Virus record (IMG/VR): IMGVR_UViG_3300009183_000101
Coordinates: 1-61,560 of that record
Reading direction: 5' to 3' (one strand)
From: a virus
Taxonomy: Duplodnaviria > Caudoviricetes
Length of the DNA: 61,560 nucleotides
Shown: piece after piece, positions 5,466-59,611 of the stretch
How positions within the stretch are numbered: position 1 is the first letter of the stretch
Layout: each line of letters starts with the position of its first letter
Notes under the pieces: model-generated
Database searches by the model: none
Told to the model about the DNA's origin: nothing
What the model saw: the letters and a program-made list of their open reading frames with translations, nothing else
Position numbers and translations under genes: made by a program

Positions 5466-5865
5466 AATGCAAATATCATAAAAAATATGGAAAATACAAA
5501 TAATAGAATGTCTGTTATCGAGTTTAATGGCAAAATTATTGTAAAAGAATCTATCGAAATATGATTGGGTAAGTTCATTTTTGTTAATAGTTCAAAGTTG
5601 TGTTTGTTAAATAACGCTATCCACCTATGGTCTTGTAGAACGTTTATATGATTCCACTCTTAATCAAAATTTGTTAAATGTTGTGTACTGCCTTGTTATT
5701 ACAAGTAATAGAAAAACCAAGTTTATTATCAAAGAAAATAAAAATGAAATATCAATTTAATTGCAATGCTAAAACCTATATTAAAAAAGGGCTCAACACA
5801 TTTTTTTAACAAAAATTTTTTTTTAAAAATTGATTATTGTAATTTCGTCACCCCAAAACACAATT

Positions 5866-17161: not shown

Positions 17162-17947
17162 TTATTTAATTACCATATTCATTTTATCGAAGTCATTGAT
17201 AAATTTATCAATCAAATCGGCTCTATCCTTATTTAATTTTGAAGGTCTTCCTTGGAAAGTTTCCAAAAATGCTTGATATGCTTCAATCCTTGGATAACCC
17301 AAAGATAAGTAAATCAATAAACCATTCAAATCTGCTTCCATTTCATCGTTTATTTGCTCGTTTAAATAATAGTGAGAAAATTCGTGAAATAAAATTGCTA
17401 ATCTCATCGGGATGGTCATTTTTTGAAATTCTTCTTTAGATACTTCTATGATTCCTGTTTTTCTACCTATTCTTGCAGGTGTATTTAACACTTTTCCATC
17501 TTCTCCTTTAATTTGTTGACTTAATCGTATAAAATAACGATTATCGTCACTTTTATATGTATTTGGAGTTAATTCCCCAAGATTAAATGAGAATTTTTGT
17601 GAAAAATCCACAAAACTCTTAATTAATGCATTACCCATATCGTTCTCATCCAACCTTCTTTCTAAAGGTGTTTTACGAACACTTACAATCTCAAATGATT
17701 TCTCTTGTTCTCTTGGAATATTTTTACCAAGAGAAGAATTATAAACTTCAACTATTGCAACTTCGGGAGATAATGGCATACGAACATACAAAGTTTCTTC
17801 ACCATCGATAGTTTTGTACCTATCGGTAAATGTTCTTGTTTTGTCCGTTGCATCATAAACGCACAACTGCAACTTTGTTGGTTTACTCGTTTTTAAAGTA
17901 ATTGCCAAAGTTAAAGGAGCGTAGTTTGTGGTTATTTTATACTTCAT
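17162..17947 (-). CDS. zincin metalloprotease, candidate virion maturation protease
   Basis: ILFHEFSHY (HExxH) with downstream EMEAD third-ligand motif. Confidence 0.7.
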   Translation of the reverse strand: MKYKITTNYAPLTLAITLKTSKPTKLQLCVYDATDKTRTFTDRYKTIDGEETLYVRMPLSPEVAIVEVYNSSLGKNIPREQEKSFEIVSVRKTPLERRLDENDMGNALIKSFVDFSQKFSFNLGELTPNTYKSDDNRYFIRLSQQIKGEDGKVLNTPARIGRKTGIIEVSKEEFQKMTIPMRLAILFHEFSHYYLNEQINDEMEADLNGLLIYLSLGYPRIEAYQAFLETFQGRPSKLNKDRADLIDKFINDFDKMNMVIK

Positions 17948-24707: not shown

Positions 24708-25347
24708 ATTTTTTCGTGAAGTTTTTGTCAGTTAATATTTTGTCTGCAATAATTAAGGAAAAATCATTATCACTTGAATAATGCAATCCTAAAAACAATC
24801 TACTAACTGATATGTCGTGTGCCAATTTTTGTAAATAATCATTATGTTCAACATATTTGTTTCCCAATACACTACAAACGAGTTTTGCTTGTAAGGTATG
24901 TCCACTTGGGTATGAAGGATTTAATGCCGACATACTTGCTGAAGGGAATAACCGAGCCTTTAAATATTGTGCCAACTGATAAGGTCTTGGTCGTTGATAG
25001 TGAAATTTTAATTTTGCAATTAAACTTTTTGACGAATTTGTTATATCATCAATAAGGTCATCTTCATTTTTACCAATTTTTTCAACGCAATAACGCTTTA
25101 AAATTGATGTTAAATCATCATCGTATGCAATATATCTATTAACGATTTTTTCGTTTTTTTGATTTTCGCTATTTTGATAATGCAATAGTTCTCTTATTTC
25201 ATCTTTTGTAGTTTCAGATGAATTAGAAGGGAAAGGAAATTCTTTTAATTCCTCATATAATGATTCAAACTCGCCCCCTTTTTTTAAGTATGGCAAGTAA
25301 ATATCATTTGGGTTTCCGTATGTAACATCGTCAAACCAACTCTTCAT
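24697..25347 (-). CDS. PAP2/haloperoxidase-superfamily phosphatase
   Basis: K.HYQRPRP, PSYPSGH, SR...GLHY.SD. Confidence 0.85.
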   Translation of the reverse strand: MKSWFDDVTYGNPNDIYLPYLKKGGEFESLYEELKEFPFPSNSSETTKDEIRELLHYQNSENQKNEKIVNRYIAYDDDLTSILKRYCVEKIGKNEDDLIDDITNSSKSLIAKLKFHYQRPRPYQLAQYLKARLFPSASMSALNPSYPSGHTLQAKLVCSVLGNKYVEHNDYLQKLAHDISVSRLFLGLHYSSDNDFSLIIADKILTDKNFTKKYGI

Positions 25348-25693
25348 ACTTGTCGCCCATTTGTTTTCTTAAATTCGTTTCGAGTTCGTTCAATTTTTTA
25401 CTCATATCAGAATCATCTTTGTCCAATTTTTGAATCTGTTTACGATTTGAAACGATACTCATGACTAAAGAAACAATAGTTAATCCAATTAAAAAAATGG
25501 TTAACCATTGTGTTTTATCCATAGCCGTGTTTTCTTCTAACGTATCAATGGTGTTATCTCTTGTAGTGCCACCCTCTGCCAACCCTTCTTGTGGAATAGG
25601 TGCAGGGTTTTGGGCTTCTACATTTGGGACATTCACGTTTGGTGAGCCACCTGCATGGTTAGTTGCTACTTGTTGTACTGCTTGTGTATTCAT
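25331..25693 (-). CDS. membrane protein with LAEGG motif and coiled coil
   Basis: central TM. Confidence 0.7.
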   Translation of the reverse strand: MNTQAVQQVATNHAGGSPNVNVPNVEAQNPAPIPQEGLAEGGTTRDNTIDTLEENTAMDKTQWLTIFLIGLTIVSLVMSIVSNRKQIQKLDKDDSDMSKKLNELETNLRKQMGDKYEELV

Positions 25694-27534: not shown

Positions 27535-30500
27535 TTATTTTTTGTTGTATTTTTTTAGTTGTGCACCAATAATTTTTTGAGCCGATTCATGTGCTTCTTC
27601 TTTATTATAAGTTTTACCATACGAATTTCGGTATTTTTTCGGAACTTCTCTTTCTAACAAAGATAATTGAACAGATTCAACTTTTTCATTAAAAGTCATA
27701 CCCCCTTTTTTGTATTCATTTTTAGCAATAATATATTTCCCCGTTTCCCCATCAATACCAAATTGTTGGTCATCGTGAGAAAGGATAGGCATTACTAATA
27801 CAAAATCATTTTTTAAAGGGTTATAAGTTGCTTCAACACTTGTAAAATATATTGCATTATTCTTTTTTTCTGAATCATAATGCATTTTGCATTTTGTCAA
27901 ACCTAATAATTTTAATGTAGTCATTGTTTTTACAATAAATTCACTATTAAAGAAAATAGTCCTATGTTTTGTTTTTACGGCAACAAATGCAATTTCATTA
28001 AAATAGTTTGTATATTGATTTACTGAAAACTCTGCTAATTTTAAAAAATCATTTATATTTATTTCGCAACTATCTAATCGGTCAAATGAATTAATTATAA
28101 TGTAAGTCCATTGAGGATATTTACTTTGAGTCGCATTTTCGCTTGTCTTATCTCCTCCAATTTTTTTGCAAACATTCGAAACACAAATTTCTTTTGCTTC
28201 AACTTCGGTTTCATTGTAAATATGAATAAGAATATTTGCATCTGTTGCAACTACTGAATTGTTTTCAAACCTAACCGAAGTTAAAGCAGGTCTTAAATAA
28301 TATGAAGAATCAGAATCACTCATAGCAAATTTATTTATTTGCTTTAACCAATTTTCATCATTTTCAATATTGTATTTTTTTGCAATTGATTTTAATTTTA
28401 AAGAAGGAACATCAATATATTTTGCAGGAAATAAATTTATTGCATTTGGATTTCCATATTCTGCTAAATTTTTTGATATGATTGCTTTATTAGATTTGCT
28501 TAAAGTATTTATCGCTTCTGCGTAAACATCAATCGCTTCTGATTTTTTATTTTCCTTTATTGATTTTTCAACTGCATCTTGAAACGCAAAAGTGTTTGCT
28601 AACTCAAAAATATTTGCAATTTCTTTTGACTTTGATGTTTTGTCCGATTTAACTTTTGCAATTGCATTTTTCATTTTTGCAACTCCATCATTTTCTTCAG
28701 AACTATAACTTTCAACACTTTTTAATGATTCTTTTTTTACATAAAATCCATTGAATTTATCATCAGTTGTTTCGCCATTCTTTAAAATAACTTTGTCAAT
28801 ATTCCTTTTAGGAATATATACATAATTATCGCTCAATTTACCACCTTTGGCTAATTTGTATTCTCCACTTATAATAGATTCTCCTTTTATCAAATGTTTA
28901 ATACCATCATCGGTAGTTATTTTTAAAATAGAAATATCTCTTGGGGAAACATATTTCAGCATTAATGGTGTTTTGCCACCTCTTGCAAATTCATCTATAT
29001 CAAAAAATTCTTCAAAATCTTCCTCTTTAAACAAATGATTTGTACCATCTTTGAAATATACAGTAACTTCCGTGTATTTATACAAATTACCATTTTTAGT
29101 TGCTTTTGCAACACATTGCCCCTTTTTTACGGGTTTCTCAAATTTCCTTTCGGCATATTCTTCAGCCATTTGGCATAGGTAATTAGAATCCCCAAGTTTG
29201 CCACCTTCAGCGTATTCGCTTCTACCATCTAAATAATGCGTTACATCGCTAATATCGGTTTCGGCTCTACCTACTTTCCCAATAACCCAAGGTTCAACGT
29301 TGTTCGGGTCTTTTTTTAATGCTCTTTTTAGTTCTTCAGTATGGTGTGCAATGGCTTTGTTTTGACTTAATACCATTTTAGTGCTTTCATCTAATTTACC
29401 ACCTTCTGCCATTTTACCTTGATTATATTCTAATGGTAAAATAGTTAAATCTATTTTACTCATTCTATATGAAGTTGTTTTATTTAACATATAATCAGTA
29501 TCATATAAAACTCCATCATCATAAATATACATCTTCTCATAGTCTTGAGAAGTTAAAACTCTTTTACGAGGTGTTGATAAAGATTTGCTTTCCAAAAGAA
29601 TCATTTTCCTTTTTTCAGTTTCTCCACCTTCAGCCATTTTCCCATAATATGGAACTTTTGAAAAATCAACTATAATCGATGGTATTTCTTTTGATTGATA
29701 TTCTTTACCATTTTTATCTTCGTAAACAAATTCGCCAAAATTATTTTTGCCATCGTCAAAAATAACTAATCCTGTCGCTACATCTCCAACTTTATTTTTT
29801 GCACCTTTAAATCTTTTTGAATAAATATAATCCAAATCTATTTCATCGGCTAAAGATTCTATTTGCTTATAAGTTATTCCACCTTCTGCCATCATATTTG
29901 CTCCCGAATTATCAGAGAATACTACGCTATTACCAACTTTAGAACTTGCTTTTTTAGACAAATCACTTTTAATTCTTTGAACATCGGTTTCGCTTAATTT
30001 AAAGTGAACTTTTTTGTCACTTTGATAATGATAAGAATAAGCACCATTTGCGTGACTTTGACTCATTAATCCTTCTCCCGTACTTAAATCCAAAAACCCA
30101 AATCTTGTATCCGATTGTATCATAATAGGCTTATTGGATTGGTCAGCAGATATTGGATAAACAATAAAGTCTTGAGGCTTTCTCATTCCCTTTATTTTCA
30201 TTTGCAATGTTGTAGTACCCATAATGTTGTTTTTAACATTAATGAGTTCGGTATTTATTGTGCCTAATTCTCCTCCTTCAGCATAGTACTCGCTTTTGCC
30301 TTTTTGACCTATTTTACGCAAATCATAAGGTTCTGCATCTAAACCAAATTCAAACGTATATCCAATCTTTTTCATTTCGGCTAATAAATCATTTAAACTA
30401 TCATAATTATAATCTTCCACTTCCAAGGTAGATAATAATTCACTAACTTCTTCGGGTTGGTCTTCATAGTCCTCAAATAAATCTACTCCTTCATCATCGT

Positions 30501-30843
30501 CCATTTCGCCACCATCTTCAAATCTTTGCCCTTGTGAAGCCCCTTCATAGACTTCTAAAGCATTTCTCTCTCTAAAAGACAAATCTCTCTCTAAAGGCAA
30601 CATAAATGGCTTTATTCTTAAAGATTCAAGTTCTTTACGAGATACGCTCCCTACTTCAACTTCAAATAAGTTTACAATAGCCCATAAATAATCGGGGTCA
30701 TTAGGGTCTGAATTAATTATATACCAAACTCCACGACCATAAGGGTTAAATATTTTAGCAATTACTTTTTGATTTGCCAACTCCCCACCTTTGAAGAATT
30801 GAGCAAATAACTTTTTATCAATGTCTTTAGTAAATAATTTCAT
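27535..30843 (-). CDS. large polyvalent protein: DUF2958-like N-terminus, xxGG-linked modules, beta-clamp-like domain
   Basis: About 10 [MYF][AE]xGG-type linkers; F.P.G...WY..E.G.VS..EL..ERD; RPAL..V...ATD..KYP..FN..LVMP; probable ATG at 30843. Confidence 0.75.
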   Translation of the reverse strand: MKLFTKDIDKKLFAQFFKGGELANQKVIAKIFNPYGRGVWYIINSDPNDPDYLWAIVNLFEVEVGSVSRKELESLRIKPFMLPLERDLSFRERNALEVYEGASQGQRFEDGGEMDDDEGVDLFEDYEDQPEEVSELLSTLEVEDYNYDSLNDLLAEMKKIGYTFEFGLDAEPYDLRKIGQKGKSEYYAEGGELGTINTELINVKNNIMGTTTLQMKIKGMRKPQDFIVYPISADQSNKPIMIQSDTRFGFLDLSTGEGLMSQSHANGAYSYHYQSDKKVHFKLSETDVQRIKSDLSKKASSKVGNSVVFSDNSGANMMAEGGITYKQIESLADEIDLDYIYSKRFKGAKNKVGDVATGLVIFDDGKNNFGEFVYEDKNGKEYQSKEIPSIIVDFSKVPYYGKMAEGGETEKRKMILLESKSLSTPRKRVLTSQDYEKMYIYDDGVLYDTDYMLNKTTSYRMSKIDLTILPLEYNQGKMAEGGKLDESTKMVLSQNKAIAHHTEELKRALKKDPNNVEPWVIGKVGRAETDISDVTHYLDGRSEYAEGGKLGDSNYLCQMAEEYAERKFEKPVKKGQCVAKATKNGNLYKYTEVTVYFKDGTNHLFKEEDFEEFFDIDEFARGGKTPLMLKYVSPRDISILKITTDDGIKHLIKGESIISGEYKLAKGGKLSDNYVYIPKRNIDKVILKNGETTDDKFNGFYVKKESLKSVESYSSEENDGVAKMKNAIAKVKSDKTSKSKEIANIFELANTFAFQDAVEKSIKENKKSEAIDVYAEAINTLSKSNKAIISKNLAEYGNPNAINLFPAKYIDVPSLKLKSIAKKYNIENDENWLKQINKFAMSDSDSSYYLRPALTSVRFENNSVVATDANILIHIYNETEVEAKEICVSNVCKKIGGDKTSENATQSKYPQWTYIIINSFDRLDSCEININDFLKLAEFSVNQYTNYFNEIAFVAVKTKHRTIFFNSEFIVKTMTTLKLLGLTKCKMHYDSEKKNNAIYFTSVEATYNPLKNDFVLVMPILSHDDQQFGIDGETGKYIIAKNEYKKGGMTFNEKVESVQLSLLEREVPKKYRNSYGKTYNKEEAHESAQKIIGAQLKKYNKK

Positions 30844-30844
30844 A

Positions 30845-33800
30845 TTAGTCGTTTTTGTGTTTTTCGGTGTAAAATACTTTGCCACCTTTAGCAAATTTCA
30901 AAGTAGCACCATCATTAAAATTAATTTTACCCGATTGTAATACTTTTATTAAATCATCTTTTTGCTCTTGAGCGTAATTTTCGTTTATATCTTCGCCCAT
31001 TTTTTTATAATAATCGGAAACATCTGCAATTAAATCTAAAGTGTTATCATATTTTAAATACAAATCTTCTTTGCCCCACATCTCTTTTGTATTACGACCA
31101 TTCCAATCTTTATAAATTCTTCCACCTTTTTCCATATAACCACCATCTTCAAAACTATCAGTAAATTCATAATCATTACCTTTGTAAACTAATCTATAAC
31201 CACTAAATCCATTATTTTTAACATACCTTTCCTTTGTTTCACCTCCATCATCAGAAACAATTATTTCTCGTCCTTTTTGAGAAATTAATTTATATCCACT
31301 TGGCTTTAACTGACCATTACTTTGCCCCCCCAATAACTCTTCTCCCATCTCTCCACCTTTAGCCATATAGCCACCATCTTCGTATTTGTAATCTTTATTT
31401 AAAGCGTTTTTAAGTTCTGCCTTAAATGTCTTTAAATGAAAACTATTAATAGGTGCATTATCAAAATCAAAATTTTTCATTACCTCATCATAAGTTATAG
31501 TGCCATAAGTACCGAATTTTGTACTTCTAACTTCTTCAACCCATTTTTTATATTCTTTTTCGGTTTTTACGTTATTCCAATCGTTATATAATTTATTTAT
31601 AATTTTGCCATTACCTTCATTTAATACAACATTTACATATCCACCTTCAGCCATCATTCCACCTTTAGCGAAACGACCACCTACTTTATCAAAAAATTCA
31701 TTTGCTTGTTTTAGTTCTTCTTTAGAAGGCTCTCTTTCTACATCATCGTAAATATCAATTTCGTATCTTTTAAATCCACCAGCGTATTGATTTCGTTCAA
31801 TACTTTTCATCATAAAAGGTTTTACCACACCTCTCCATTTTGCACCATTACTTCTGTTCTCCGTCAAAATGACTTCTGTGTTTAATTTTCCACCTTCAGC
31901 CATATAGCCACCATCTTCGTATTTTTCCAAATAATTCGAAACATTATACACTTCTTTAAATCCATCTTCTTTTAATGAATTTATAATAGAATTTAATTGA
32001 ATCTTACTTTTAGCAGTACTAATACCAATAAACGGACTTCCATCTTTATGTGTTGACTTACCATCATAAACATCAACTACATATTTCGCCTTTCCTATGC
32101 TATGAGGATAAACAGAAAATAATTTTTCTTGCAATGTACCACCTTCTTCATATTTTCTTCCCCAATCTTTTTCGTAAATAGAAATATAATTATCAAATTC
32201 TTTTTCTAAAATTTCTTGAGCCTTATTTTTACTTCCATCAAACACAACAACATCGGGTTGATTTGACCAACCATATTTTTTTGCTTTTCTAACTTTTTTA
32301 AAGCCGTTGTCTTTTAAAACTTTTGCAATTTTATCTTCATCGTAGTTTGGATAAAAATCATTTACATAGTAAACCTCTTCAGCCATACCACCATGTTCGT
32401 ATTTATTAAATTCAACAATAGAAAGTTTAGCATTTGGATAAATTTCTTGAAACTCTTTATACTTTAAAGATACAAAATTTTTATTATCACTCTTAAAATA
32501 AATTATATCGGTGTTTTCATCAACTATTGCATAAGACTTTGCCTTAGTATTATCGCCTTCAGCCATACCACCATCTTCGTATTTTTTACCATCAGCAATA
32601 TAATCGTATCCATTTTTATGAGCCCAATTAATTGCTTTTTTTGACATTGGATGTTTTGGATAATAGCCCGAAGTTGGTCTTACTACTTTATTTTCTCTAT
32701 TAATAGAAGCAATCCGAACATTTTTTTCAAAATATGGCTCATATCCTAACAAGTAATCACCTTCTTCTTGAATTCGACCACCTTCAGCCATATAGCCACC
32801 TTTGGCATTTTTCGTATTTATATTTGTTATTTTTATTCTTTCTATGTAATTAACATTTCCTTGCCAAATCGGTCTGCCATAAGACCTTTTAAATGTAAAA
32901 TTAGTTCCATTATTTAAAGTAACTAAATAAGTATCTTCGGAATAAGGATTACTATTATTGTAAGGATAATTTTTTCCTTTTTCTATTACTTCTATATTTT
33001 TTACAATATATTCAGTTTTATCATAAATATAATCAGTCAAATCTTCTTCATTTTTTATCGTAACATATCCATCATCTTTCTTTCCAGCCATTACCCCCTT
33101 ATAATATGATTGCCATTCACCACCTAATGATTTTATTTTTGAAATTTCCTCCTCTAATTTACCACCTTCAGCCATACCACCATGCTCATAACGACTATCT
33201 TCCATTTCAAAGTCATAGAAATATCCATAACTTTTAAGTTCTTTTCTTAAATCTAAAGCATCGGCTTTTTTCAAAGTAATAAAAAAACTAACTTGCGAAA
33301 TATCCCCACTTGTTCTCCAATCTTTTGAATATGGTTCTACTATATTGATAACTTCATTTAAACTTATATTATCAGTATTAAACGAGAAAGAAAACACTAC
33401 TTTTTCACTTAATTTACCACCACGCTCTAACATAGGGTATTTTTTACGTTTTACATCGGCACGATTAATACGTCCTTCGTAATACGCTCTTCCTTCTGTA
33501 ATATCTGCTCTTGTAGGTTTTTTATAATTATGTTTACCCCTCATTCTCCATCCAAAAGGCTTTGCAGGTCTATTTGCATCAATATCGTTTCCTGTACCTT
33601 TTTTATCTTGGGCTTCTTTCTTTCGTTTTTCACCAAGGGCTTTCCCTCTTTCTTTTTGAGCATCTGCAAGAGCCTTTTTATATTCGGGAGTTGTCTTAAC
33701 GGCAATTGGTTTAACTTCTTTTAATTTGTTAAAAAAGTCAACGAATAATTGTTTTGCTTCTTCGTCTTTACCAATAAAATTACCTGTCGCTAAACGCAAT

Positions 33801-33889
33801 TTTTTTAATGTTTCCTTGGCTTTATCAGAAATCTTTGTTTGGTCAATAGATTTGTATAAAGTGGATAAAGTATTTGTAGTTTTTTTCAT
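30845..33889 (-). CDS. large polyvalent protein: array of about 10 unrelated modules joined by YExGG(Y)MAEGG linkers
   Basis: About 17 GG motifs in the translation. Confidence 0.8.
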   Translation of the reverse strand: MKKTTNTLSTLYKSIDQTKISDKAKETLKKLRLATGNFIGKDEEAKQLFVDFFNKLKEVKPIAVKTTPEYKKALADAQKERGKALGEKRKKEAQDKKGTGNDIDANRPAKPFGWRMRGKHNYKKPTRADITEGRAYYEGRINRADVKRKKYPMLERGGKLSEKVVFSFSFNTDNISLNEVINIVEPYSKDWRTSGDISQVSFFITLKKADALDLRKELKSYGYFYDFEMEDSRYEHGGMAEGGKLEEEISKIKSLGGEWQSYYKGVMAGKKDDGYVTIKNEEDLTDYIYDKTEYIVKNIEVIEKGKNYPYNNSNPYSEDTYLVTLNNGTNFTFKRSYGRPIWQGNVNYIERIKITNINTKNAKGGYMAEGGRIQEEGDYLLGYEPYFEKNVRIASINRENKVVRPTSGYYPKHPMSKKAINWAHKNGYDYIADGKKYEDGGMAEGDNTKAKSYAIVDENTDIIYFKSDNKNFVSLKYKEFQEIYPNAKLSIVEFNKYEHGGMAEEVYYVNDFYPNYDEDKIAKVLKDNGFKKVRKAKKYGWSNQPDVVVFDGSKNKAQEILEKEFDNYISIYEKDWGRKYEEGGTLQEKLFSVYPHSIGKAKYVVDVYDGKSTHKDGSPFIGISTAKSKIQLNSIINSLKEDGFKEVYNVSNYLEKYEDGGYMAEGGKLNTEVILTENRSNGAKWRGVVKPFMMKSIERNQYAGGFKRYEIDIYDDVEREPSKEELKQANEFFDKVGGRFAKGGMMAEGGYVNVVLNEGNGKIINKLYNDWNNVKTEKEYKKWVEEVRSTKFGTYGTITYDEVMKNFDFDNAPINSFHLKTFKAELKNALNKDYKYEDGGYMAKGGEMGEELLGGQSNGQLKPSGYKLISQKGREIIVSDDGGETKERYVKNNGFSGYRLVYKGNDYEFTDSFEDGGYMEKGGRIYKDWNGRNTKEMWGKEDLYLKYDNTLDLIADVSDYYKKMGEDINENYAQEQKDDLIKVLQSGKINFNDGATLKFAKGGKVFYTEKHKND
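31353..33189. repeat. dispersed direct repeats encoding the GG linkers
   Basis: 31353-31387 vs 31890-31924: 35 bp, 1 mismatch; shorter copies near 31641, 32377, 32555, 32777, 33161. Confidence 0.85.
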
Positions 33890-33898
33890 AATTTTATT

Positions 33899-34276
33899 TT
33901 AAAATTCTAAATCTAAAATGTCTTGTCTAATTTGTTCCAAAAATAATCTTTTTTCATCAATATTTTCACCACTATTATTTGGTGGGGTTTCTATAACTTG
34001 AACTTCTTGAATATCTTGAATCTGCTCAATTTCTTTTATCTCTTCTTCAATGTTTTCTTTTGCTTTAGGATTTAATTTATATTCATTTAAACGCTTTAAC
34101 AAAATACTTGACATTTCTGCAATAGTATGAGCAACTACATCCCTTTTACGCTCATTTGTTATTTCTTCATAAATTAACTGCATTCCATCAATTAATTTTC
34201 CACCATCAAGAATATCTTGTGGTAATTTATTTTGCTCCTCTTCGGATATATTTAAAAAATTAAAAAATCTTATCAT
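33899..34276 (-). CDS. hypothetical acidic helical protein
   Basis: ORF in operon. Confidence 0.7.
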   Translation of the reverse strand: MIRFFNFLNISEEEQNKLPQDILDGGKLIDGMQLIYEEITNERKRDVVAHTIAEMSSILLKRLNEYKLNPKAKENIEEEIKEIEQIQDIQEVQVIETPPNNSGENIDEKRLFLEQIRQDILDLEF

Positions 34277-34575
34277 ATTATTGTTGTGTTACTTACATAT
34301 TTTGCAATTAATGGTGGTGGCATAATTAAATTCATAGTTACTATTTCGCCATCAAACAAAATGTTGTAAAATATTTGTTTGGTAAAAGGAATATTTTCTT
34401 CAGACAAATCTTGAATTAAAGTTGAAACAATAGTTATACTATTATCATCTTCATTTAGACTTTTTCTAACTTCAAACGAGCAATACCTTTCAGAGCCAAA
34501 CCCTATATATTCATTAACGTTTTTATTATATTCGTTTCGTAAATTTTCTATTTTGTATTTTTGTAAATCTGTCAT
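34273..34575 (-). CDS. hypothetical protein
   Basis: ORF with ATGA overlaps. Confidence 0.7.
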   Translation of the reverse strand: MTDLQKYKIENLRNEYNKNVNEYIGFGSERYCSFEVRKSLNEDDNSITIVSTLIQDLSEENIPFTKQIFYNILFDGEIVTMNLIMPPPLIAKYVSNTTII

Positions 34576-35876
34576 GGTGTTTGCTCTAAATTTTTAATTT
34601 GTCTTATTGCCCTATCAAATGTTTTTTGTGCTTGTTGTTGGCTCAAACAAGCGTTAATAATAATTTTAGTGTTAGGATTCAAACTATCGTCTTTACTACT
34701 ACCAAAATCTTTACTTGTTTGCAATGCTTTAATAAGACTTCTTTTTGTAATATCGGCATCATTAATCGCACTACCTAAACCTATACTAATATCGCTATTA
34801 TATCCTAAATCATAGGAAGCCGTAATTATATATTTGAAAAATTGGTATCTAAAGTTTCTCGCATCAGCACTTATAATTGCCGTTGTGTTTGAGTTTAATG
34901 GGTCATTTAAGTCTTTTAGTTTAATAAAAGAACTAACAATTTTACTTTGATTATTTCCCCAAGAAGTTGCCCCACCCCCATAAATTCTAAATCTAACATT
35001 CGATTTACTTAATTTTTCAATTATTGCATTTACGGCAACGGAAGTCCAAAACATCTCATCTCTTGCTTCTACATTAGCATTATAACTTACTTGAATAACA
35101 ATATCAATTTGTGGTAATTGAAAAGGTATTTGTGGAATATAAATAAAACTCTTTTTCCAAGTAGAACTGAATTTAGGCAATCCATTAACCCCAATCACTT
35201 GCCTTTGTTGAACATCGTGACGTGGTATTTCTGCTACTTTTAAATGTATAAATTCAAATTTTCCATCAATTATTTCTTTAACCACATAAGGGCTATTTTG
35301 ATTTACGAAAATATTTAAGATGGGAGAAAATAATTTACCATTCTTTTGTTCCAAATAATGTTGTGGAATTTCGGCAACAAAGATGTGATAAAAAACCACA
35401 TCTCCGTTTCCCGTTTTATAAGAACGAACTTCATCGCCCCCAACAATTCTATTTAATAGAGGGCTAAAATATTCTACCACGGGAATAAGCCCTAAAGATG
35501 CAAGGTCAAAAGAAAATATTCCAATCTCTTGAGCAGTAAAAGTAATTTTCTTTTTTTGCTCTAAATCAATTTGCTCGATATTTGTATTGTTTCTATCAAA
35601 CGCTTCTAATTCCCTTTTTAATTCATCATTAAATTTAAAAGTATTAATATCTTGTTTGACTTCCTCAAAATCCGTAGTTCCATACCAATTTTCGTTCCTT
35701 CTCGCTCTTTGTGTTAAATAACTTTCATCAAAAATAGAATCGTAAACGGCTCTTGCATTATCCGTTAAGGTAGGAACTAAATCATTAATATAGTCTACAT
35801 AATCAAAGTAACTATCAAACAAAATTGTTTGACTATTCCTTTTAATTGACGATATGTCTACTTTGGTAAAACCCAT
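34572..35876 (-). CDS. degenerate vWA-like partner of the AAA+ ATPase
   Basis: C-terminal alternating beta/alpha pattern (IDIVIQVSYNANV..AIIEKL..RFRIY..IKLK); directly downstream of a MoxR-type ATPase. Confidence 0.5.
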   Translation of the reverse strand: MGFTKVDISSIKRNSQTILFDSYFDYVDYINDLVPTLTDNARAVYDSIFDESYLTQRARRNENWYGTTDFEEVKQDINTFKFNDELKRELEAFDRNNTNIEQIDLEQKKKITFTAQEIGIFSFDLASLGLIPVVEYFSPLLNRIVGGDEVRSYKTGNGDVVFYHIFVAEIPQHYLEQKNGKLFSPILNIFVNQNSPYVVKEIIDGKFEFIHLKVAEIPRHDVQQRQVIGVNGLPKFSSTWKKSFIYIPQIPFQLPQIDIVIQVSYNANVEARDEMFWTSVAVNAIIEKLSKSNVRFRIYGGGATSWGNNQSKIVSSFIKLKDLNDPLNSNTTAIISADARNFRYQFFKYIITASYDLGYNSDISIGLGSAINDADITKRSLIKALQTSKDFGSSKDDSLNPNTKIIINACLSQQQAQKTFDRAIRQIKNLEQTP

Positions 35877-38359
35877 TAGTCTACGATATATTTATCAGCA
35901 ATTAACCAATTAGTTGATTCGCTATAAATTTTAGAAGCCGTTTCTTTAACCATTGGAGTCAATGAATCTACAAACCCACTTTCTCCACCATTAACGATTA
36001 AATCAATAGTGGTTTTAGTTACTTTTTCAACTTCATCGTAGGTATATCCACTTTCACGAATTAATGTTTGTTTTGCATCATCGCCAAACGCAACTAAATA
36101 ACTTTCAAAAGTTGACAATACGGTTTTTCCTTTATCACTAATTCCTGTATCGCCTTGTTTTCTTGCAATCGCACGAACTAATTCTATTTCAAAACCTACT
36201 CTAAAAGCAATGATAGTACGATAAGAAACCAATGCCATATTTTTCATATTGTTGGCTTCGATAATCGTTCTTAAACCTCTTGGAGTTGGTAATGCTTTAT
36301 TATCTCTTTTCGCTTTAATGTATTCGTGATAATTACCTACAAGCATATCATACAAAAATTTATATCTGCAACTCTCTTCGTCAATATATTGAGAATAGTC
36401 TACATAGTAAACGCTACCACTAAATCTATCTAACAAAGATAAATCTTGTTGGTTATTACCAACGTATCCTGCAGGATTAGGTTTGTTTGGATATACGTTA
36501 CCCGTTCCAATAACTGCAAAATTTTCATTTCTTGGTATTGGTGGTTCACTTGGATTGGTTGAATTGATTTTAGCATTCTGTCTTGTTTTAGAAGATTTTG
36601 CCAACGCATCGTTTAACAAACCTGCCGTGTTAGGGTCAAGTTTAGGCATCTCATCTAAAATAAGTATTTTACCATCTCTCCAAGAAACAATTAATTTACC
36701 ATCCTTGTATCCTTCGATTGTTTGACCTCCTAAAATTTCAGTTGGCGAAGTATATTGAGAACAATTTAAAACCATAAAATCACGATTTAAAATTTCTGCA
36801 ACTCTTTCAGCAGTAAATGTATTGTGAGTTACAATATAATCATCGGTAAGGTACAAACTTGTAGGATTTGATACTTTGATACATCTCACTTGCTCTACAC
36901 CCTTAAATTCAATCTTTTCAATTGACCTACGAGTTTTGTATTTTGTATTATGAGTGTATTTTTTATTTGACTTTCTAAATGGATTAATATTATCGGGGAA
37001 AACACAATGTAGTCTATATGCCGTTGTTGTTTCTTTTCTAATTCCATTTTTAATGTATTTACCCATTCTTGAAGTTACACGACAAGTTCCACCTAAACTT
37101 CTTACTAATTCAGCAAAATCAATGCTTAATTTTTCACTTGAAGTTGAATATTCAAAATGAGTACTATCTGCATATCCATCAGTATCACACAACCCTTGCA
37201 ACAAAGATATTCTATCTTCTAAAGTTCCATATAAATATTGATGTGGAATATGTTTATCAATAGATTTTTTATATAATAAATTTAAATCCTTTAATTCATT
37301 TTTAAACAAATTAACACCATCTTCTCCAATTATTCCATAAGCATTAGAGCGTTCATCATTATTTCTTTTAGATAATTTAACTTTTTCGGGTAATAATCTG
37401 CTTACTTCATTTATAATATTTTCATCATTATTACTAATTGATATTGAATCTGTAGTTAAAGAACCATCTCCAATCACAACTGCTAAAACGTAAGGGTCTA
37501 TAATATTGTTGAATTTTCTATTAAAATCAACTGCTTTAGCAACGGGAATATATGCATTAGCATAACCTTTTGCAGTAAATGTTTCAATTTCACTTAATGG
37601 AATAACTTTACCTTTTCTCCCTCTACTCCTATCTAATCTCGTTTGAACTTCCCATAAATGTTCGTCACAAGTTTCCGTTGTAGCCCCGTCTGAAGTAGTA
37701 ACAATAAACACATTTTTTTCGCCTCTGTCATAAACCCCTTCAACGTGATAAATGTTTCCATCTTCGCCAAAAACTTCATCCCCTACTTGTATATTTTCAA
37801 AAGTAATGAATCCATTTGGTGTGCAAATTTTTGCCGACAATGGTTGTGCTTTACCACCACCTGCTTCACCGATTAAATATACGTTGTTACCTGCCAATAC
37901 ATCATCCAAAATTGAATAGATATTTGGTATCATTGAAGTACCTTTATCTACTGTAATTTGCAAATCATATTTTGGCAAACTCAAAACAACTATTTGATTT
38001 TTGCGTATTTCATCTAAAACGCTTTTATCTAACTCGTCTAAATTGATTTTACGGGTTGTAAGGAACTCTTCAATCATTTTCCTCACTTCGTAACTATCTA
38101 CACCTCCACCTTGATTAGAAAGCATCATAGCCCTCAATGTGGTAAGCATGGCATCAATAGTTGAAGAACCATCAGTAGTTGTTTTTGACTTTTTTTCTTT
38201 TTTAGTTTCTTTAACTACAACTTCTTCTGTAATAGGAGTCATTGCTTTTAATTCATCTAATTTTGATTGAGCATTTGAACGAATATTTTCGGGTGTACTT
38301 GGATTGCCAATAATCCTTTCCATTGCTTCAATTTTTGAATTTATTTCTTGTTGTGTCAT
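35876..38359 (-). CDS. MoxR/CobS-like AAA+ ATPase interrupted by an intein
   Basis: Walker A GEAGGGK|T split by intein; ILILDEM Walker B; GTGN; LLDRF. Confidence 0.85.
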   Translation of the reverse strand: MTQQEINSKIEAMERIIGNPSTPENIRSNAQSKLDELKAMTPITEEVVVKETKKEKKSKTTTDGSSTIDAMLTTLRAMMLSNQGGGVDSYEVRKMIEEFLTTRKINLDELDKSVLDEIRKNQIVVLSLPKYDLQITVDKGTSMIPNIYSILDDVLAGNNVYLIGEAGGGKAQPLSAKICTPNGFITFENIQVGDEVFGEDGNIYHVEGVYDRGEKNVFIVTTSDGATTETCDEHLWEVQTRLDRSRGRKGKVIPLSEIETFTAKGYANAYIPVAKAVDFNRKFNNIIDPYVLAVVIGDGSLTTDSISISNNDENIINEVSRLLPEKVKLSKRNNDERSNAYGIIGEDGVNLFKNELKDLNLLYKKSIDKHIPHQYLYGTLEDRISLLQGLCDTDGYADSTHFEYSTSSEKLSIDFAELVRSLGGTCRVTSRMGKYIKNGIRKETTTAYRLHCVFPDNINPFRKSNKKYTHNTKYKTRRSIEKIEFKGVEQVRCIKVSNPTSLYLTDDYIVTHNTFTAERVAEILNRDFMVLNCSQYTSPTEILGGQTIEGYKDGKLIVSWRDGKILILDEMPKLDPNTAGLLNDALAKSSKTRQNAKINSTNPSEPPIPRNENFAVIGTGNVYPNKPNPAGYVGNNQQDLSLLDRFSGSVYYVDYSQYIDEESCRYKFLYDMLVGNYHEYIKAKRDNKALPTPRGLRTIIEANNMKNMALVSYRTIIAFRVGFEIELVRAIARKQGDTGISDKGKTVLSTFESYLVAFGDDAKQTLIRESGYTYDEVEKVTKTTIDLIVNGGESGFVDSLTPMVKETASKIYSESTNWLIADKYIVD
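36821..37849 (-). mobile_element. 343-aa intein with LAGLIDADG homing endonuclease, class 3-type
   Basis: Begins AQPL, ends VTHN before Thr+1; LAVVIGDG and LQGLCDTDG motifs; W/C/T signature. Confidence 0.9.
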
Positions 38360-38365
38360 TTCGTT

Positions 38366-39709
38366 TTAATCTAATAATTGTAATATGTTTAAGTCGCTTA
38401 TGTACGTAGCCAATTCAAGTCTCTTTGATTCATCAGTTTCTAAATCTAAAAGCATATTTAACGCTCCAATGTACTCTTCTAAATTACCCTCTTCTTTGTT
38501 TTCTGATTTAGGTACATATTTTTCTAAATATTTAAATGGAACAGGAATAGTAACTCCATTGCCACCCCCAAAATCTATATATGCTTCTTTTTGACTATAA
38601 TCAATAGATTTAATATTACCAACATATCCTATAGGATACAATGCATCATTATAACTAAAAGGCATTTTTAATTTTATTGTATCGTTCAAATAAAATGTCA
38701 AAATTTCTCTTGGTGCTTCTTCAATAATTCTAATCTTTTTAAATGGAATGTAATATAAAAAATCGGGTACTCTTTCAGAATTCATATATGCATCCACATA
38801 AGTATTCGGTGGATAATAATCTTGTGCAAAAACACCCGTGTCCCCTTTTTTCAATGTACCATCATCTTCCATTAATTCAAATTCAGTTCCTTGAGGAATC
38901 ATAACTTGTGGTTCTTTTGGATTTTCTGCTTTTGGTTGACTCGCTCCTCCCCAATATTTGCTTAAAACATCACACGCTTTTTGTGGAATAGTATCATCGG
39001 GCATAGTAGTCCATCTTTGGAATGTTCCACTTTTGTATCCCCACATAAACCCTGCTTCTAACATATCGGCTTTAATTTCAGCCCATTGTTCTTTATTCTG
39101 CTTTGTATCTTTGTCCTTAACTACGTTATAAAGATATTTTTCTTTTGGTTTACCTACATATATTTTCCATCCATTACCACAATCTAAAACTAAATCAAGG
39201 TTATCAGTAGGGCTATATTTACCACCTTTACGTTGATATTCTTTTTTCGTAGTTTTAGGCATATCCTCGTAATTTGGAGGTGTCATATCATATTCTTTAG
39301 AATCATAAGGAGGTTTATTATCAACGTTTATATATGGTGAATCATTTTCAATTTTAGTTCCATCTATTAAAGTTGCGTTGACATTTTTACCATAAAAATT
39401 ACCATCGGGGTCACCACTACTATAATCAATATATTTTCCAAATCTATCTGCAAATTCCTTTATATCCAAAAACCACTCTCTTGGCACATTCCATAAATAA
39501 ACACTTATTCTTGAGCCCATAGAATATTTACTTGATTTAGCCCAAACTTTTATGTCGCCATACTTATTTTTAATGTATTGTTTTATGATTTGAGCAATAC
39601 CTGTTGTATCAATATATATTGAAACATCATAAGGAGTTCTATACTCATATACATCAATATTTTTGTAAGTTTCCCCAAAAACGATAATATCTTTTTTAAT
39701 TTTTGCCAT
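38366..39709 (-). CDS. polyvalent protein with LPD29-like N-terminal domain
   Basis: AQIIKQYIK.KY..IKVW..SSKYSMGS.ISVY; SH3-like C-terminal repeats. Confidence 0.6.
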   Translation of the reverse strand: MAKIKKDIIVFGETYKNIDVYEYRTPYDVSIYIDTTGIAQIIKQYIKNKYGDIKVWAKSSKYSMGSRISVYLWNVPREWFLDIKEFADRFGKYIDYSSGDPDGNFYGKNVNATLIDGTKIENDSPYINVDNKPPYDSKEYDMTPPNYEDMPKTTKKEYQRKGGKYSPTDNLDLVLDCGNGWKIYVGKPKEKYLYNVVKDKDTKQNKEQWAEIKADMLEAGFMWGYKSGTFQRWTTMPDDTIPQKACDVLSKYWGGASQPKAENPKEPQVMIPQGTEFELMEDDGTLKKGDTGVFAQDYYPPNTYVDAYMNSERVPDFLYYIPFKKIRIIEEAPREILTFYLNDTIKLKMPFSYNDALYPIGYVGNIKSIDYSQKEAYIDFGGGNGVTIPVPFKYLEKYVPKSENKEEGNLEEYIGALNMLLDLETDESKRLELATYISDLNILQLLD

Positions 39710-42612
39710 TAACAATATCCTCCTTCTTTCATTTTTCTCATTAGGTTGTGCCCGTAAGAAGTTTTATGGTTTTTCATTCCTTGTTTTTTATTATAAGTTG
39801 AATTTATTTTATTCATAATTTGATAATCTTCCATTGTTTCGCCCCCAAATTTATACATTTTACCCGAACAATTACATTGGTTAACTTCCCCACCATCTTC
39901 AAATTTAACACCTCCACCACTTTCATTTATCTTTGATAAGATTTGCTTATTTGTAAGCATCTCTCCTTCAAACTCGTATAATTCATCATCTTCAACGGCT
40001 TTTTTAGTAATAATAACTTCTCCACCTTCTACTTCTATTGGTGAATTGGTCGTTGAATTCCATGCTTTTATACCACCTTCAGCGTGACTTTTACCTTCAA
40101 AATATCCACCTCTTTTGCCACTATTAGTCAGTCCATGCTCGGTTAATACCGAACCACCTTCGGCAAATTTTGGTGTTGTTTTTTGTATCCCTAAAAGGTG
40201 TTCATATCTATCCATTTTTGTTTTGCCTCCTTCGGCATATTTATTGTCACTTGACAACATTTTTTCAACTTTGTTTTTTTGTCTTTGAACTCTATTTTTC
40301 AAATCATAAAGCCCATAAGGTGCTTTTATATTATTTGCGTTTAACCTTTTTGAAATCCAAGTTGATTCTAAATCCTCAATAGTATTTTTTGTCGGTTTAT
40401 ATTTGTTTTCATCTAAATTATCCAAATCCTTGAATAAAATATATTGATTATATGGCAAATCTTGAGGTCTAACCACATCTCCCATAGAAAAATAAATTCT
40501 ATTACTCTCTTTCTCTATTGTTTTTTGTATAACTAAAGGTAATTCATTTAATTTAGCAATTTTTATTGTTGGTTTTTTAATATTTTCAAATTCTCTTTTT
40601 GCCTCATCATATTGCTTTTGTTGTGCTTCTAAAATCGCTAATTTCATTTGTTGTTTAGCCAAAGTTTTAGAAGCCGTTGCTAAATTACCAAAAACTTTTT
40701 TAGTATCTTTATCTACAAAACCCATAATAGACAAAACACTCTCACTACTAACCGATTTTTTACTACCATCGGGCATTTCTATATCAAAAACGTGAACTAA
40801 ATCTCTTCCTGTTTCTGCACTTTCTTCTGCTTGAGCCCAATCCGAAACTCTTTTACCATATTCTTCTCCTTCTTTATTAAAAGAACTTTCAATAGTATAT
40901 TTCCATTGATAAGCAACAAGTTTTGTTCCATTTTTCCCCAATAAAGGAGGGTCAAAAACAATAGTATCACTCGGTTTAAATCTTGAACTACTACTAATTA
41001 TTTTATCAAAATTTACCTCCCCACCTTCGGCATATCTTATATCGTTATTTTCACTATCAAAGGTTGTATTTGTTCCGTCTGCAAGTTTTATTTGATTAGG
41101 GGAAAGTACAATAAATGATTTACCATCACCTTCGTATTTATTATTATAAATAAATCCAACTGAATCCCCATATTTTGATTTTATATATTCTCGAATTTTT
41201 ACATTATCTTCTCTATAATAAGCACTTAAAAACCCTTTTTCTTTGGCAATTTTTTCATCAATTATGTTGTCTGAAATTAACATATCAATATATCTTTGAG
41301 GGTATTCCCATTCTCCAATATCACTTACTTCAAACAAAGGTTTTATGTTTAAAAAATAAGAACTTACATAAGATTTAAACCCCTCTATAAAAAATTTTGT
41401 TGTAGAGCGATTTTTTGCTTGTTCTTTTGTCCCAAAATGGAAACCTAAATCGGCTTTTTCTAAATCAAATGTGTAAAATGGCTCTTTTGCATAAGTCCCG
41501 TGATAAACTACTAAAGGTTCTCCATTTTCGTCTACAACTTGACTTGCGTTTTTAGGGTCATTTTCCCAATCGCCAAACCATTTTTTAAATTCGGGGGTAC
41601 GAACAAGTTTATATTGTTCGGGAGTTAAATTACTTTTCTTGCCATTAGGAGCAATTAACCCACCTTTATCATAACGTATATCGTTATTTAAAGCACTAAA
41701 TTCAGTATTCCTACCATCGGCAAGTTTAACTTGGTTAGGTTCAAATATTGTAACGGCTCTTGTAAATTCATCTGCTTTCGTTATATCTGCATCTTCTCTA
41801 ATCTCTTCAACATACATAACCCCATCATAGCCTAATGATTGCAAAAAACTTTTGAATTCGCCTTTTCTATCTCTTGACATTAATTTCCAAAATTGAATAT
41901 CGTCAAAAAAATTATCAAACACATAATCTTTTACATACTTGTATTTATTATCTTTAGCGAATTGTTCTATTTGAGACGCATCCAAATTATTTTTTACCCC
42001 ATAATCGATAAATATTTCTGATAAAAAAGCGTATCCTTTATCAAGTTTATAATTAATATAAATATAAGGATTTTTTAAGCAAGTAAAAACGCTATACAAT
42101 GTTTTGCCTTGACTAAATTGTTCACTATATGATTTATTGAGTGCAAAATAAGAATATGGTCTTCCCAAATCTCTAACATCGGTTTTAAATTCAAAAAACT
42201 CTTCTGATTTAGTTCCGTGCCAATATGCTTGAGGTTCTAAAGTATCGTAATCAATTGTGTATGAAACATCTTTGATTTTGTATTCATGAAAATAAAAAGA
42301 TAATATAATTTGATTCCTTGAAAGATTTCCTTTGCTTTTATCATTTTGCCAAAAAGATTTTAAAAGTGTTTTTTCAACTTGACTAAATGGAGTTTCTTTT
42401 GCTCTATCTTGAACAACTTTATTAGCAAAATTTTCCCAATCTCCAAACCATTCTTTAAATGCTTTAGTTCTAACTAATAACTGTTGAATATAAGTCAATT
42501 TTGATGGAGCACCCGTTGGTGTATCTATTTTAAATAAAATAGAAGTTTCTCCACCTAACGCCATTTTTTTTATAGCGTTTTCATATTCTAAATCGTAATC
42601 AATATTTTGCAT
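39709..42612 (-). CDS. large polyvalent protein with two ADP-ribosyltransferase-like (ART-PolyVal) domains and xxGG linkers
   Basis: Two copies of VRT..FK.WFGDWE..HGT..PNQ.KLADG.N..F...NNDIRY; about 8 GG linkers. Confidence 0.8.
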   Translation of the reverse strand: MQNIDYDLEYENAIKKMALGGETSILFKIDTPTGAPSKLTYIQQLLVRTKAFKEWFGDWENFANKVVQDRAKETPFSQVEKTLLKSFWQNDKSKGNLSRNQIILSFYFHEYKIKDVSYTIDYDTLEPQAYWHGTKSEEFFEFKTDVRDLGRPYSYFALNKSYSEQFSQGKTLYSVFTCLKNPYIYINYKLDKGYAFLSEIFIDYGVKNNLDASQIEQFAKDNKYKYVKDYVFDNFFDDIQFWKLMSRDRKGEFKSFLQSLGYDGVMYVEEIREDADITKADEFTRAVTIFEPNQVKLADGRNTEFSALNNDIRYDKGGLIAPNGKKSNLTPEQYKLVRTPEFKKWFGDWENDPKNASQVVDENGEPLVVYHGTYAKEPFYTFDLEKADLGFHFGTKEQAKNRSTTKFFIEGFKSYVSSYFLNIKPLFEVSDIGEWEYPQRYIDMLISDNIIDEKIAKEKGFLSAYYREDNVKIREYIKSKYGDSVGFIYNNKYEGDGKSFIVLSPNQIKLADGTNTTFDSENNDIRYAEGGEVNFDKIISSSSRFKPSDTIVFDPPLLGKNGTKLVAYQWKYTIESSFNKEGEEYGKRVSDWAQAEESAETGRDLVHVFDIEMPDGSKKSVSSESVLSIMGFVDKDTKKVFGNLATASKTLAKQQMKLAILEAQQKQYDEAKREFENIKKPTIKIAKLNELPLVIQKTIEKESNRIYFSMGDVVRPQDLPYNQYILFKDLDNLDENKYKPTKNTIEDLESTWISKRLNANNIKAPYGLYDLKNRVQRQKNKVEKMLSSDNKYAEGGKTKMDRYEHLLGIQKTTPKFAEGGSVLTEHGLTNSGKRGGYFEGKSHAEGGIKAWNSTTNSPIEVEGGEVIITKKAVEDDELYEFEGEMLTNKQILSKINESGGGVKFEDGGEVNQCNCSGKMYKFGGETMEDYQIMNKINSTYNKKQGMKNHKTSYGHNLMRKMKEGGYC

Positions 42613-44394: not shown

Positions 44395-44495
44395 TAGTTG
44401 TTTCGTTCAAACGTGCGTATTCATTAAGGGAGGCAACACTTTTATTTTTTAAATTTTCGCCAATGGTTGCACCCCTTGAACAAATGATTAAACGC

Positions 44496-44813
44496 TTAAC
44501 TTCTTTGAAGTTCAAGTTTAGGTTTTTCTTCATACTTTCCAACTAAAAATTTCATTGCTTGTATTTCACAAGTCTGAATAGCCACAACGTTATCACCTTC
44601 TTTTGCAAGTTGCAATTTTGTGCAGTTAGTACTACACAACTCATAAGCCATAACTATTTGATTAGCCATATTCTGAGTAGGTATCGGGGCACACTTGTGA
44701 CACTTAGTATTTAATCCATCTTTTACTAAAACTTTCGCCCCCTTAACTTGAGGGTGGTCGCTAATTGAATATTGATGAAAATATTCTAATTTATTTTTTT
44801 CTTGTTCACTCAT
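44496..44813 (-). CDS. Cys-containing hypothetical protein
   Basis: ORF with promoter 4 nt upstream. Confidence 0.65.
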   Translation of the reverse strand: MSEQEKNKLEYFHQYSISDHPQVKGAKVLVKDGLNTKCHKCAPIPTQNMANQIVMAYELCSTNCTKLQLAKEGDNVVAIQTCEIQAMKFLVGKYEEKPKLELQRS

Positions 44814-44846
44814 AGTGCAAATATAATTTTATTTTAGAGAATAATA

Positions 44847-48288: not shown

Positions 48289-48289
48289 T

Positions 48290-59594: not shown

Positions 59595-59611
59595 CTAAAT
59601 TTAAAGAACAA

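Follow-up and report, generated by a model that had tools for sequence, protein, structure and literature searches.

The region described here belongs to an uncultured freshwater phage (Duplodnaviria; Caudoviricetes) held as IMG/VR record IMGVR_UViG_3300009183_000101; the whole of this stretch, which is 61,560 nt long with ~30% G+C and an estimated completeness of 82%, is referred to below as the window. The sequencing runs in which it was found are freshwater metagenomes (24 runs listed, none of them RNA). Within 15 kb of the window, three minus-strand genes encode the large proteins A, B and H (Table 1), each of which carries many copies of a short motif ending in Gly-Gly. An earlier note, made from the letters of the sequence, had described three proteins of ~1000 residues with about 35 such sites, and had interpreted them as packaged polyproteins that are cut at, or tethered through, the Gly-Gly linkers in order to deliver small effectors. 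The open reading frame (ORF) of A reaches 30894 from a TTG codon (27535-30894, 1119 aa), the likely start being M18, at window position 30843, as in the Atlas record.

Table 1. Coordinates, in the window, of proteins A, B and H, of their parts and of other genes named in the text.
Feature	Position	Strand	Description
Protein A	27535..30843	-	10 motifs; DUF2958 head, cassettes, clamp-like module, conserved C-terminal module
A, DUF2958 domain	30538..30831	-	residues 22-119
A, cassette array	28840..30507	-	residues 130-685; cassettes A3-A9
A10 module	27715..28839	-	residues 686-1060
Beta-sliding-clamp-like part	~27778-28383	-	C-terminal two thirds of A10; by fold match
A11 module	27538..27699	-	residues 1066-1119; C-terminal
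Protein B	30845..33889	-	1014 aa; head, 10 cassettes of 55-123 aa and tail; 16 motifs
B, head	33416..33889	-	residues 1-158, ending PMLERGG
B, cassette array	30896..33415	-	residues 159-998; cassettes B2-B11
B, C-terminal tail	30848..30895	-	FAKGG-KVFYTEKHKND
Protein H	39709..42612	-	967 aa; 9 motifs
H, ART-PolyVal domains	41035..42549	-	two paralogs, residues 22-313 and 319-526, with YDKGG between
H4 module	40240..41019	-	residues 532-791
H, small domain	39844..40113	-	residues 834-923
Candidate zincin-like metallopeptidase	17162..17947	-	HEFSH...EAD (HExxH...E)
M23 peptidase	1280-1792		Pfam/PHROGs scan
Exonuclease-like ORF	9055-9882	+	
RecT-like annealing protein	10057-10854	+	
Small membrane protein	25331..25693	-	single LAEGG/MAEGG/MAQGG site
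ORF ending ...KFKDGGVV	5830..6870	+	motif 2 residues from C-terminus

In its strict form, [MYFL][AEK][EDKRH]GG, the motif occurs 30 times in the three proteins (9 in A, 16 in B and 5 in H), against means of 0.07-0.16 and maxima of 2-4 in residue shuffles (2000 per protein). The loose form, [MYFLIVWH]xxGG, occurs 35 times (10, 16 and 9, respectively), where the corresponding shuffles gave means of 1.5, 2.9 and 1.6 and maxima of 7, 10 and 6. The density of loose sites is 9-16 per 1000 residues in A, B and H versus 2.8 in the other 42 ORFs of at least 150 residues. The loose total is essentially the figure given in the earlier note, and the doubled sites to which it drew attention, such as YEDGGYMAEGG, are present in B.

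Homologs were gathered with B only, plus a search with the A10 module of protein A. The search with B, conducted against 5.8 billion proteins, gave 152 of similar length, of which 120 were listed; the complete set comprises 231 homologs (155,066 aa), and many of the metagenomic members are fragments. At least three strict motifs are present in 109 of the 120 listed homologs, while the 231 homologs hold 2175 motif sites in all, with the consensus K-[M 40%, Y 30%, F 15%, L 8%]-[A 64%, E 16%]-[K 36%, D 22%]-G-G-x-[M/V/I]. A hydrophobic residue occupies position -3 in 2118 of their 2571 Gly-Gly dipeptides. Spacing between motifs peaks at exactly 6 aa, corresponding to tandem copies, and again at 60-80 aa. 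There are 439 tandem arrays of at least two copies, in which the first copy mostly carries Y, F or L (335) and the last mostly M (368), such that the junction looks like a C-flank half joined to an N-flank half. Motifs are also found 1-2 residues before some C-termini (with the endings GGL, as in Y[ST]IGGL, GGYC and GGVV) and 11-21 residues after some N-termini.

The modules that lie between the sites are mostly 55-126 aa in length and are mutually unrelated (no pair at E <0.1 by BLASTP), with the exception of the two ART domains of H (E 8e-13). The DUF2958 domain, the ART-PolyVal domains and the clamp-like module are all bounded by motif sites. Accordingly, the description in the earlier note of small unrelated modules, with DUF2958-like, two ART-like and clamp-like domains at the borders, stands, the domains themselves being confirmed by Pfam and by a fold match. 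Among the 120 listed proteins, each homolog covers just 7-42% of B, and each B cassette matches its own subset of 5-30 proteins. Near-full-length matches to B2-B11 in these proteins are flanked by Gly-Gly on the left in 121 of 123 cases and on the right in 122 of 123. None of 29 directly neighbouring module pairs keeps the adjacency seen in the window, and 53 distinct module strings were recorded; cassette B8, for example, is found at 75-100% identity beside many different neighbours. Cassette content and order therefore vary among relatives, as had been predicted, and the opposite outcome, of modules forming one fixed structure in an invariant order, was clearly absent. Known domains of polyvalent or anti-restriction type take up cassette positions in relatives too (LPD11, ArdA, RelA_SpoT and DUF5661), and the motif frames LPD11 (454/464-532/537), DUF5661 (922/929-966/969), ArdA (860/871-1037) and DUF6496. 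The expectation that cassettes would have stand-alone homologs was borne out in part: small proteins without the motif that match cassettes do exist (P0203, P0208 and P0221), but they are rare, the majority of short homologs being fragments or proteins that still contain several cassettes.

Cassettes thus move independently between proteins and between phages. The view that A, B and H are strings of independent cassettes, with the motif at every border and with variable cargo, is strongly supported by these sequence comparisons, and that they serve as carriers of cassettes joined in this manner is regarded as highly probable. To this extent, that is, as to modular cassettes, motif borders and variable content and order, the interpretation offered in the earlier note was upheld.

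The same conclusion can be followed at the level of DNA in contigs that are syntenic with the window, in which the flanking genes are 55-96% identical and the cargo is very different. B and A comprise 1014 and 1119 aa in the window, 265 and 289 aa in contig L002, 648 and 1106 aa in L004, 670 and 472 aa in L005, and 422 and 482 aa in L006 (= L007). In a more distant relative, L009 (head identity 34%, ~47% G+C), gene order is kept and a 756-aa B-like protein with 8 motifs is encoded. When the window is aligned with L002 by blastn, DNA homology stops and resumes at 33417 and 30897 in B, at 30506 and 27709 in A, and at 41021 and 40177 in H; the distance to a motif is at most 3 nt for five of these six breakpoints and 10 nt for the other. 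Contigs assembled from the freshwater runs X2, X4 and X7 (the comparison was of assembled contigs, not of reads) contain joints that delete or reorder cassettes. One of these, 29397/29623, removes exactly cassette A6 and one motif (225 nt), and another, 31907/33417, removes B2-B7 (1509 nt). Among the joint endpoints listed in A or B, 12 of 17 are within 3 nt of a motif, the off-motif endpoints being 31567, 32465, 31980, 32205 and 33882; 23 further joints lie beyond those listed. For comparison, 8-13% of positions in the genes are within 6 nt of a motif. Phages that are nearly identical differ in entire cassettes, and the recombination junctions sit on motif-coding DNA.

Whether selection acts upon the linker as DNA or as peptide can be judged from its codons. 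The first Gly codon is GGT at 30 of 35 motif sites in the window, compared with 60 of 165 elsewhere in the genes (p = 1e-7), and at 54 of 63 sites in close relatives, compared with 1 of 11 in L009. Exact matches between linkers extend up to 27 nt, with 29 of 590 pairs sharing at least 14 nt, and one L002 linker of 24 nt has the same sequence (100% identity) as two linkers of the window. The RecT-like and exonuclease-like proteins encoded in the window could feasibly be the agents of short-homology recombination at this DNA. A role for the motif as a DNA signal only was rejected, since nucleotides vary at its hydrophobic and charged positions and L009 uses other Gly codons. Despite the different codons, L009 retains the peptide. 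Additionally, the small membrane protein at 25331..25693, which is unrelated to the arrays, retains its single site in three orthologs despite variable flanks. As far as codon and ortholog comparisons go, these two observations show that the junction is under selection as a peptide. A motif at the N-terminus of the PAP2-family ORF is absent from the L006/L007 orthologs, and is probably there by chance.

Protein B displays the carrier layout most simply. Its head is basic (pI 10.1, net +21), has 49 invariant columns across 20 aligned sequences, and is found in 76 of the 231 homologs, where it always starts within the first 12 residues. The C-terminal tail, of the type GG(E)VFY[TK]E[KS]HK followed by 3-5 residues, is present in 45 of the 231, always at the extreme C-terminus. 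What lies between head and tail varies, there being one cassette in L002 in place of the whole B2-B11 array, and none in the 178-aa homolog P0142, which comprises a head and a tail. Structures were predicted for the B head, in the form of this minimal member, and for A10 only. In the AlphaFold model of P0142 the head is helical, with pLDDT ~90 at residues 9-97, whereas residues 145-178, which make up the junction and tail, have pLDDT <50 and are predicted to be disordered. The head fold had no match in the PDB or BFVD at E <= 0.001.

Protein A has different ends. The DUF2958 domain (PF11171; E 1.7e-11, 44.9 bits against a gathering cutoff of 21) is N-terminal in every relative that has it. Module A11 lies within ~100 residues of the C-terminus in 17 of the 231 homologs (at least 60% coverage), has some match in 24 of the first 120, and stands at the very C-terminus of the B-like protein of L009. 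Cassette A3 (residues 130-203, window 30286-30507) is strongly acidic, with pI 4.1, a net charge of -18 and 32% Asp+Glu, a composition that would fit a DNA-mimic candidate; 22 of 231 homologs contain it, which places it among the cassettes shared most widely, and it matches phrog_37263, a family of unknown function. The A10 module gave a predicted fold with pLDDT 85.7 and pTM 0.81, and residues 153-354 of the model align structurally with bacterial beta clamps over domains II-III (Foldseek E 4e-7; VIA Z 14.4, 173 residues at an rmsd of 3.4 A), with an identity of 13-17%; there was no match to Pfam DNA_pol3_beta. On the evidence of the model, A10 is clamp-like but is not a DnaN ortholog, in that two domain equivalents align, as opposed to a three-domain protomer, and in that A10 is embedded in a polyvalent protein although it shares the fold of domains II-III. 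The A10 domain was found in 35 representative proteins, several of which also have DUF2958, RadC or DUF5661. The clamp-like fold is present in A although the phage has no recognisable DNA polymerase.

Protein H begins with a 21-residue peptide ending MALGG, which is followed by the two ART-PolyVal domains, a 260-aa unknown module (H4) and small C-terminal modules. ART-PolyVal (PF18760) matches the two stretches with E 8.9e-20. In L002, ~98 unrelated residues stand in place of H4, and H is 786 aa long there. The small domain at residues 834-923 has a counterpart at the C-terminus of a tape measure protein, that of Elizabethkingia phage TCUEAP1, in which KFARGG follows the domain; this match is the one hint of packaging into virions, which otherwise might be supposed by analogy.

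By their domain content, A, B and H are members of the class of polyvalent proteins (Iyer, Burroughs, Anand, de Souza and Aravind 2017; PMC5512222). As with the proteins described in the main text of that article, they are large (967-1119 aa, with 8-12 modules each), phage-encoded and composed of enzymatic and unknown domains mixed together; ART-PolyVal and DUF2958 occur here, and LPD11, ArdA, RelA_SpoT and SNF2 occur in relatives, amongst which the architecture is a variable mosaic. Delivery with the DNA and possible proteolytic processing, both proposed for the class in the same text, are proposed here also. Unlike the class, however, the present proteins have one conserved junction peptide at every border, their cassettes are unusually small, with sizes peaking at 60-80 aa, and a fixed head and tail frame anything from 0 to more than 10 cassettes. 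None of the words linker, glycine, spacer and boundary appears in the main text of PMC5512222, although its supplements may show such features. The ART domain is also present in a 3633-aa polyvalent protein of Bacteroides phage BF1-TP2, where 10 loose sites were counted versus 6.2 expected; since the motif is not enriched there, the junction peptide is not general to the class. A literature search found no published description of this junction peptide or of the head-cassette-tail design.

Precursors that are processed at Gly-Gly provide a second comparison, and include polyubiquitin, the precursors of ubiquitin-like proteins (Ubl), pp220/pp62 of African swine fever virus (ASFV), adenovirus protease substrates and double-glycine leader peptides. 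In common with these, the proteins described here consist of repeated units that each end in Gly-Gly with a hydrophobic residue upstream, and 1-2 extra residues follow the last Gly-Gly at some C-termini. Gly-Gly at every unit border, which is to be expected of such a polyprotein, was seen both in the cassette flanks and in the pattern across the 231 homologs. The differences are that the units here are mutually unrelated and not ubiquitin-like, that, counted from the first Gly, the hydrophobic residue is at -3 as opposed to -2, that no protease of clan CA/CE or C39 was found in the window, and that cleavage is, in the present case, a hypothesis. A third comparison is with polymorphic toxins, in which motifs such as VENN in CdiA and PxxxxDPxGL of Rhs mark the pre-toxin border. 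There, as here, a short conserved motif delimits swappable cassettes at recombination borders. Conversely, polymorphic toxins exchange a single C-terminal toxin together with its immunity gene, whereas many internal cassettes are arranged in series here, no immunity genes were seen and the context is that of a phage.

The best explanation as a whole, although one to be held tentatively and at rather less than even odds, is that A, B and H are polyvalent multi-effector carriers whose junction peptide serves as a cleavage site. At the N-terminus of each stands a conserved head (B1 in B, DUF2958 in A) and at the C-terminus a conserved end (the tail with VFYTEKHK, or module A11); the small cassettes strung between them vary and fold independently, with every junction conforming to K-[M/Y/F/L]-[A/E]-x-G-G-x-[hydrophobic], often doubled with a 6-residue period. 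The proteins would act on the host early, and would probably be delivered with the DNA or soon after it, as envisaged for polyvalent proteins. The exposed junction peptide would then be recognised in trans, and limited proteolysis at or after Gly-Gly would free mini-proteins of 55-125 aa, in the manner of polyubiquitin or of viral polyproteins cut at Gly-Gly. The candidate protease would be the HExxH protein at 17162 or a host enzyme. Recognition by a protease is favoured by the combination of an anchor residue and Gly-Gly in an exposed segment, and by the occurrence of the motif just before some C-termini and shortly after some N-termini, a placement that resembles Ubl-type precursors. It is favoured also by Iyer et al., in whose main text (PMC5512222) the processing of polyvalent proteins by zincin-like peptidases is proposed. 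The 17162 ORF is 40% identical in L009, where it lies in the same gene block, and prediction of a complex between its product and residues 640-690 of B gave a score of 0.01, which provides no answer either way. The cleavage step, taken by itself, is no more than a reasonable conjecture, with the balance slightly tipped away from it. More ambitiously, the carriers could feasibly be viewed as a protein-level integron: small effector cassettes would be collected in frame at one universal junction peptide, with recombination taking place in the DNA that encodes it, and a Gly-Gly-directed protease would then free more than 20 mini-effectors; in this full form the idea is possible, if unlikely.

A number of observations weigh against cleavage and against packaging. 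The M23 peptidase and a weak zincin match are the sole peptidases in Pfam or PHROGs scans of 45 ORFs, many of which have no match at all; the zincin match itself, of the 17162 ORF to PhageMetallopep (E 0.025), is below the cutoff, and no Gly-Gly-specific protease was identified in these scans. Nor was a peptidase domain found in A, B or H by Pfam, or in the precomputed Pfam annotation of 226 listed homologs. Single junctions, at 5-6 residues, are short for access by a protease, and the hydrophobic residue is one position further from Gly-Gly than in LxGG or (M/I/L)xGG sites. The conservation of elements at both ends of the chain suggests that the intact chain matters at some stage. The GGT bias and the near-identical linker DNA show that, within the clade, copying by recombination contributes to the uniformity of the motif, and the joints seen in H fall between the two ART paralogs, none of them at motifs. 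As regards packaging, no capsid, portal or terminase gene was recognised by Pfam or PHROGs in the window or in the complete relative, and a tblastn search of cultured phages with protein B gave no match. Indeed, several characterised polyvalent proteins, namely N4 vRNAP, ArdC and TraC1, are transferred uncleaved, according to the main text of PMC5512222.

This last observation also favours an alternative in which the chain is never cut and the motif is a compact, frame-preserving hinge in a beads-on-a-string protein, kept uniform by concerted evolution through short-homology exchange in the linker DNA. The whole chain would then act as one tethered multi-effector, or would be divided into small domains so as to thread a narrow delivery channel. 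The breakpoints and joints on linker DNA, the exact matches between linkers, the codon bias at the first Gly, the RecT-like and exonuclease-like proteins, the conserved head and tail and the peak in cassette size are all points in its favour. Yet a hinge pure and simple has no need of a conserved bulky hydrophobic residue followed by Ala, and motifs that stand 1-2 residues from a C-terminus cannot act as hinges; the persistence of the peptide in L009 with different codons, and of a single site in an unrelated small membrane protein, are also contrary to it. It is judged a real but rather unlikely alternative.

In a further alternative, the motif is a short linear docking peptide for a partner of phage or host origin, such as the interior of a capsid or membrane, a scaffold or a chaperone, which would load or hold the cargo and for which many copies would provide avidity. 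Capsid-targeting sequences of T4 internal proteins and encapsulin cargo-loading peptides are examples of such peptides. Consistent with docking, motifs are found at extreme C-termini and near N-termini, including in non-array proteins, tandem copies are common, the context of the motif is predicted to be disordered, and the same peptide follows the shared domain in the tape measure protein, a virion protein, of a cultured phage. However, no partner has been identified, the motif of the PAP2 ORF is missing in L006, and docking alone does not explain why every border, and almost only borders, should carry the motif; it is considered improbable. Least probable by far is that the motif is an artefact of chance or low complexity, or marks internal translation starts at its frequent Met. 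The proteins are Gly-rich, and Met is the hydrophobic residue at 40% of the sites in the family and in most last tandem copies. Yet the observed counts were never attained in the shuffles, most sites that lack Met have Y, F or L in its place, conservation of the motif borders extends across 231 proteins, and nothing speaks for internal initiation.

The comparisons show how natural phages that are almost identical can acquire or shed accessory functions in frame at a fixed joint. If the carrier reading with its cleavable junction is correct, then the motif amounts to a sequence rule by which hundreds of giant metagenomic proteins can be cut into working units; the outcome would be an extensive list of 55-125-aa domains, nearly all of them without a known family, as candidates for anti-host or anti-defence roles. 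The processing proposed for polyvalent proteins would become directly testable, by way of peptides ending in Gly-Gly, and foreign cargo might be loaded onto the head, junction and tail, used as a natural scaffold. Should the integron idea also be true, the clade of uncultured freshwater phages would possess a rapidly reshuffled anti-host arsenal.

In other searches, the 15-kb region had no megablast match among cultured phages, and protein A matched four cultured-phage records by tblastn, in the DUF2958 part only. Sequence searches of the PDB with A, B and H returned nothing. A first scan of viral contigs with single-sequence patterns and a scan of genome contigs with an alignment of the B head produced no relative. 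Candidate L003, from the viral scan, was dropped as an unrelated, high-GC, tape-measure-like protein in which the motif is not enriched (6 versus 2.5 expected).

Among the neighbouring genes, an AAA_5 ATPase ORF (35876-38359) is interrupted by a 343-aa LAGLIDADG/Hom_end intein at 36821-37849, the exact 1029 nt of which are absent from L002, L006, L007 and contigs of runs X4 and X7; PHROG 'terminase' matches of this ORF fall on the intein region. The record behind L002, G001, is complete at 67,810 nt and has a 123-nt perfect inverted terminal repeat. Neither G001 nor the window has a match to Pfam Terminase_6N, HK97 Phage_capsid, DNA_pol_B, DNA_pol_B_2 or DNA_pol_A. A small, well conserved P-loop ATPase (22070-22885), with weak Zot/AAA_22/DUF87 matches, adjoins an unknown 334-aa ORF (the two spanning window 22070-23886), and several small membrane proteins come after this pair. 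The phage may possibly represent a membrane-containing, non-HK97 virion lineage. A PAP2-family phosphatase (24697-25347, minus strand) lies among the small membrane proteins beside gene A. Pure glycine runs occur in two minus-strand ORFs, as G9 in 18988-19584 and G6 in 4213-4998, the former protein having in addition an N-terminal membrane helix and an Ala/Glu/Lys-rich repeat. On the other side of gene H, a minus-strand cluster for sugar modification (43105-49225) encodes a glycosyltransferase, two FkbM methyltransferases, a C-methyltransferase and a GDP-mannose 4,6-dehydratase. Two DNA methyltransferases and a type IB topoisomerase-like protein (Pfam Topoisom_I, E 3.4e-20) are encoded at 49222-50520, 52922-54220 and 51166-51840, all on the minus strand, and a tRNA-Met (CAT) gene is found at 59524-59595 on the plus strand.

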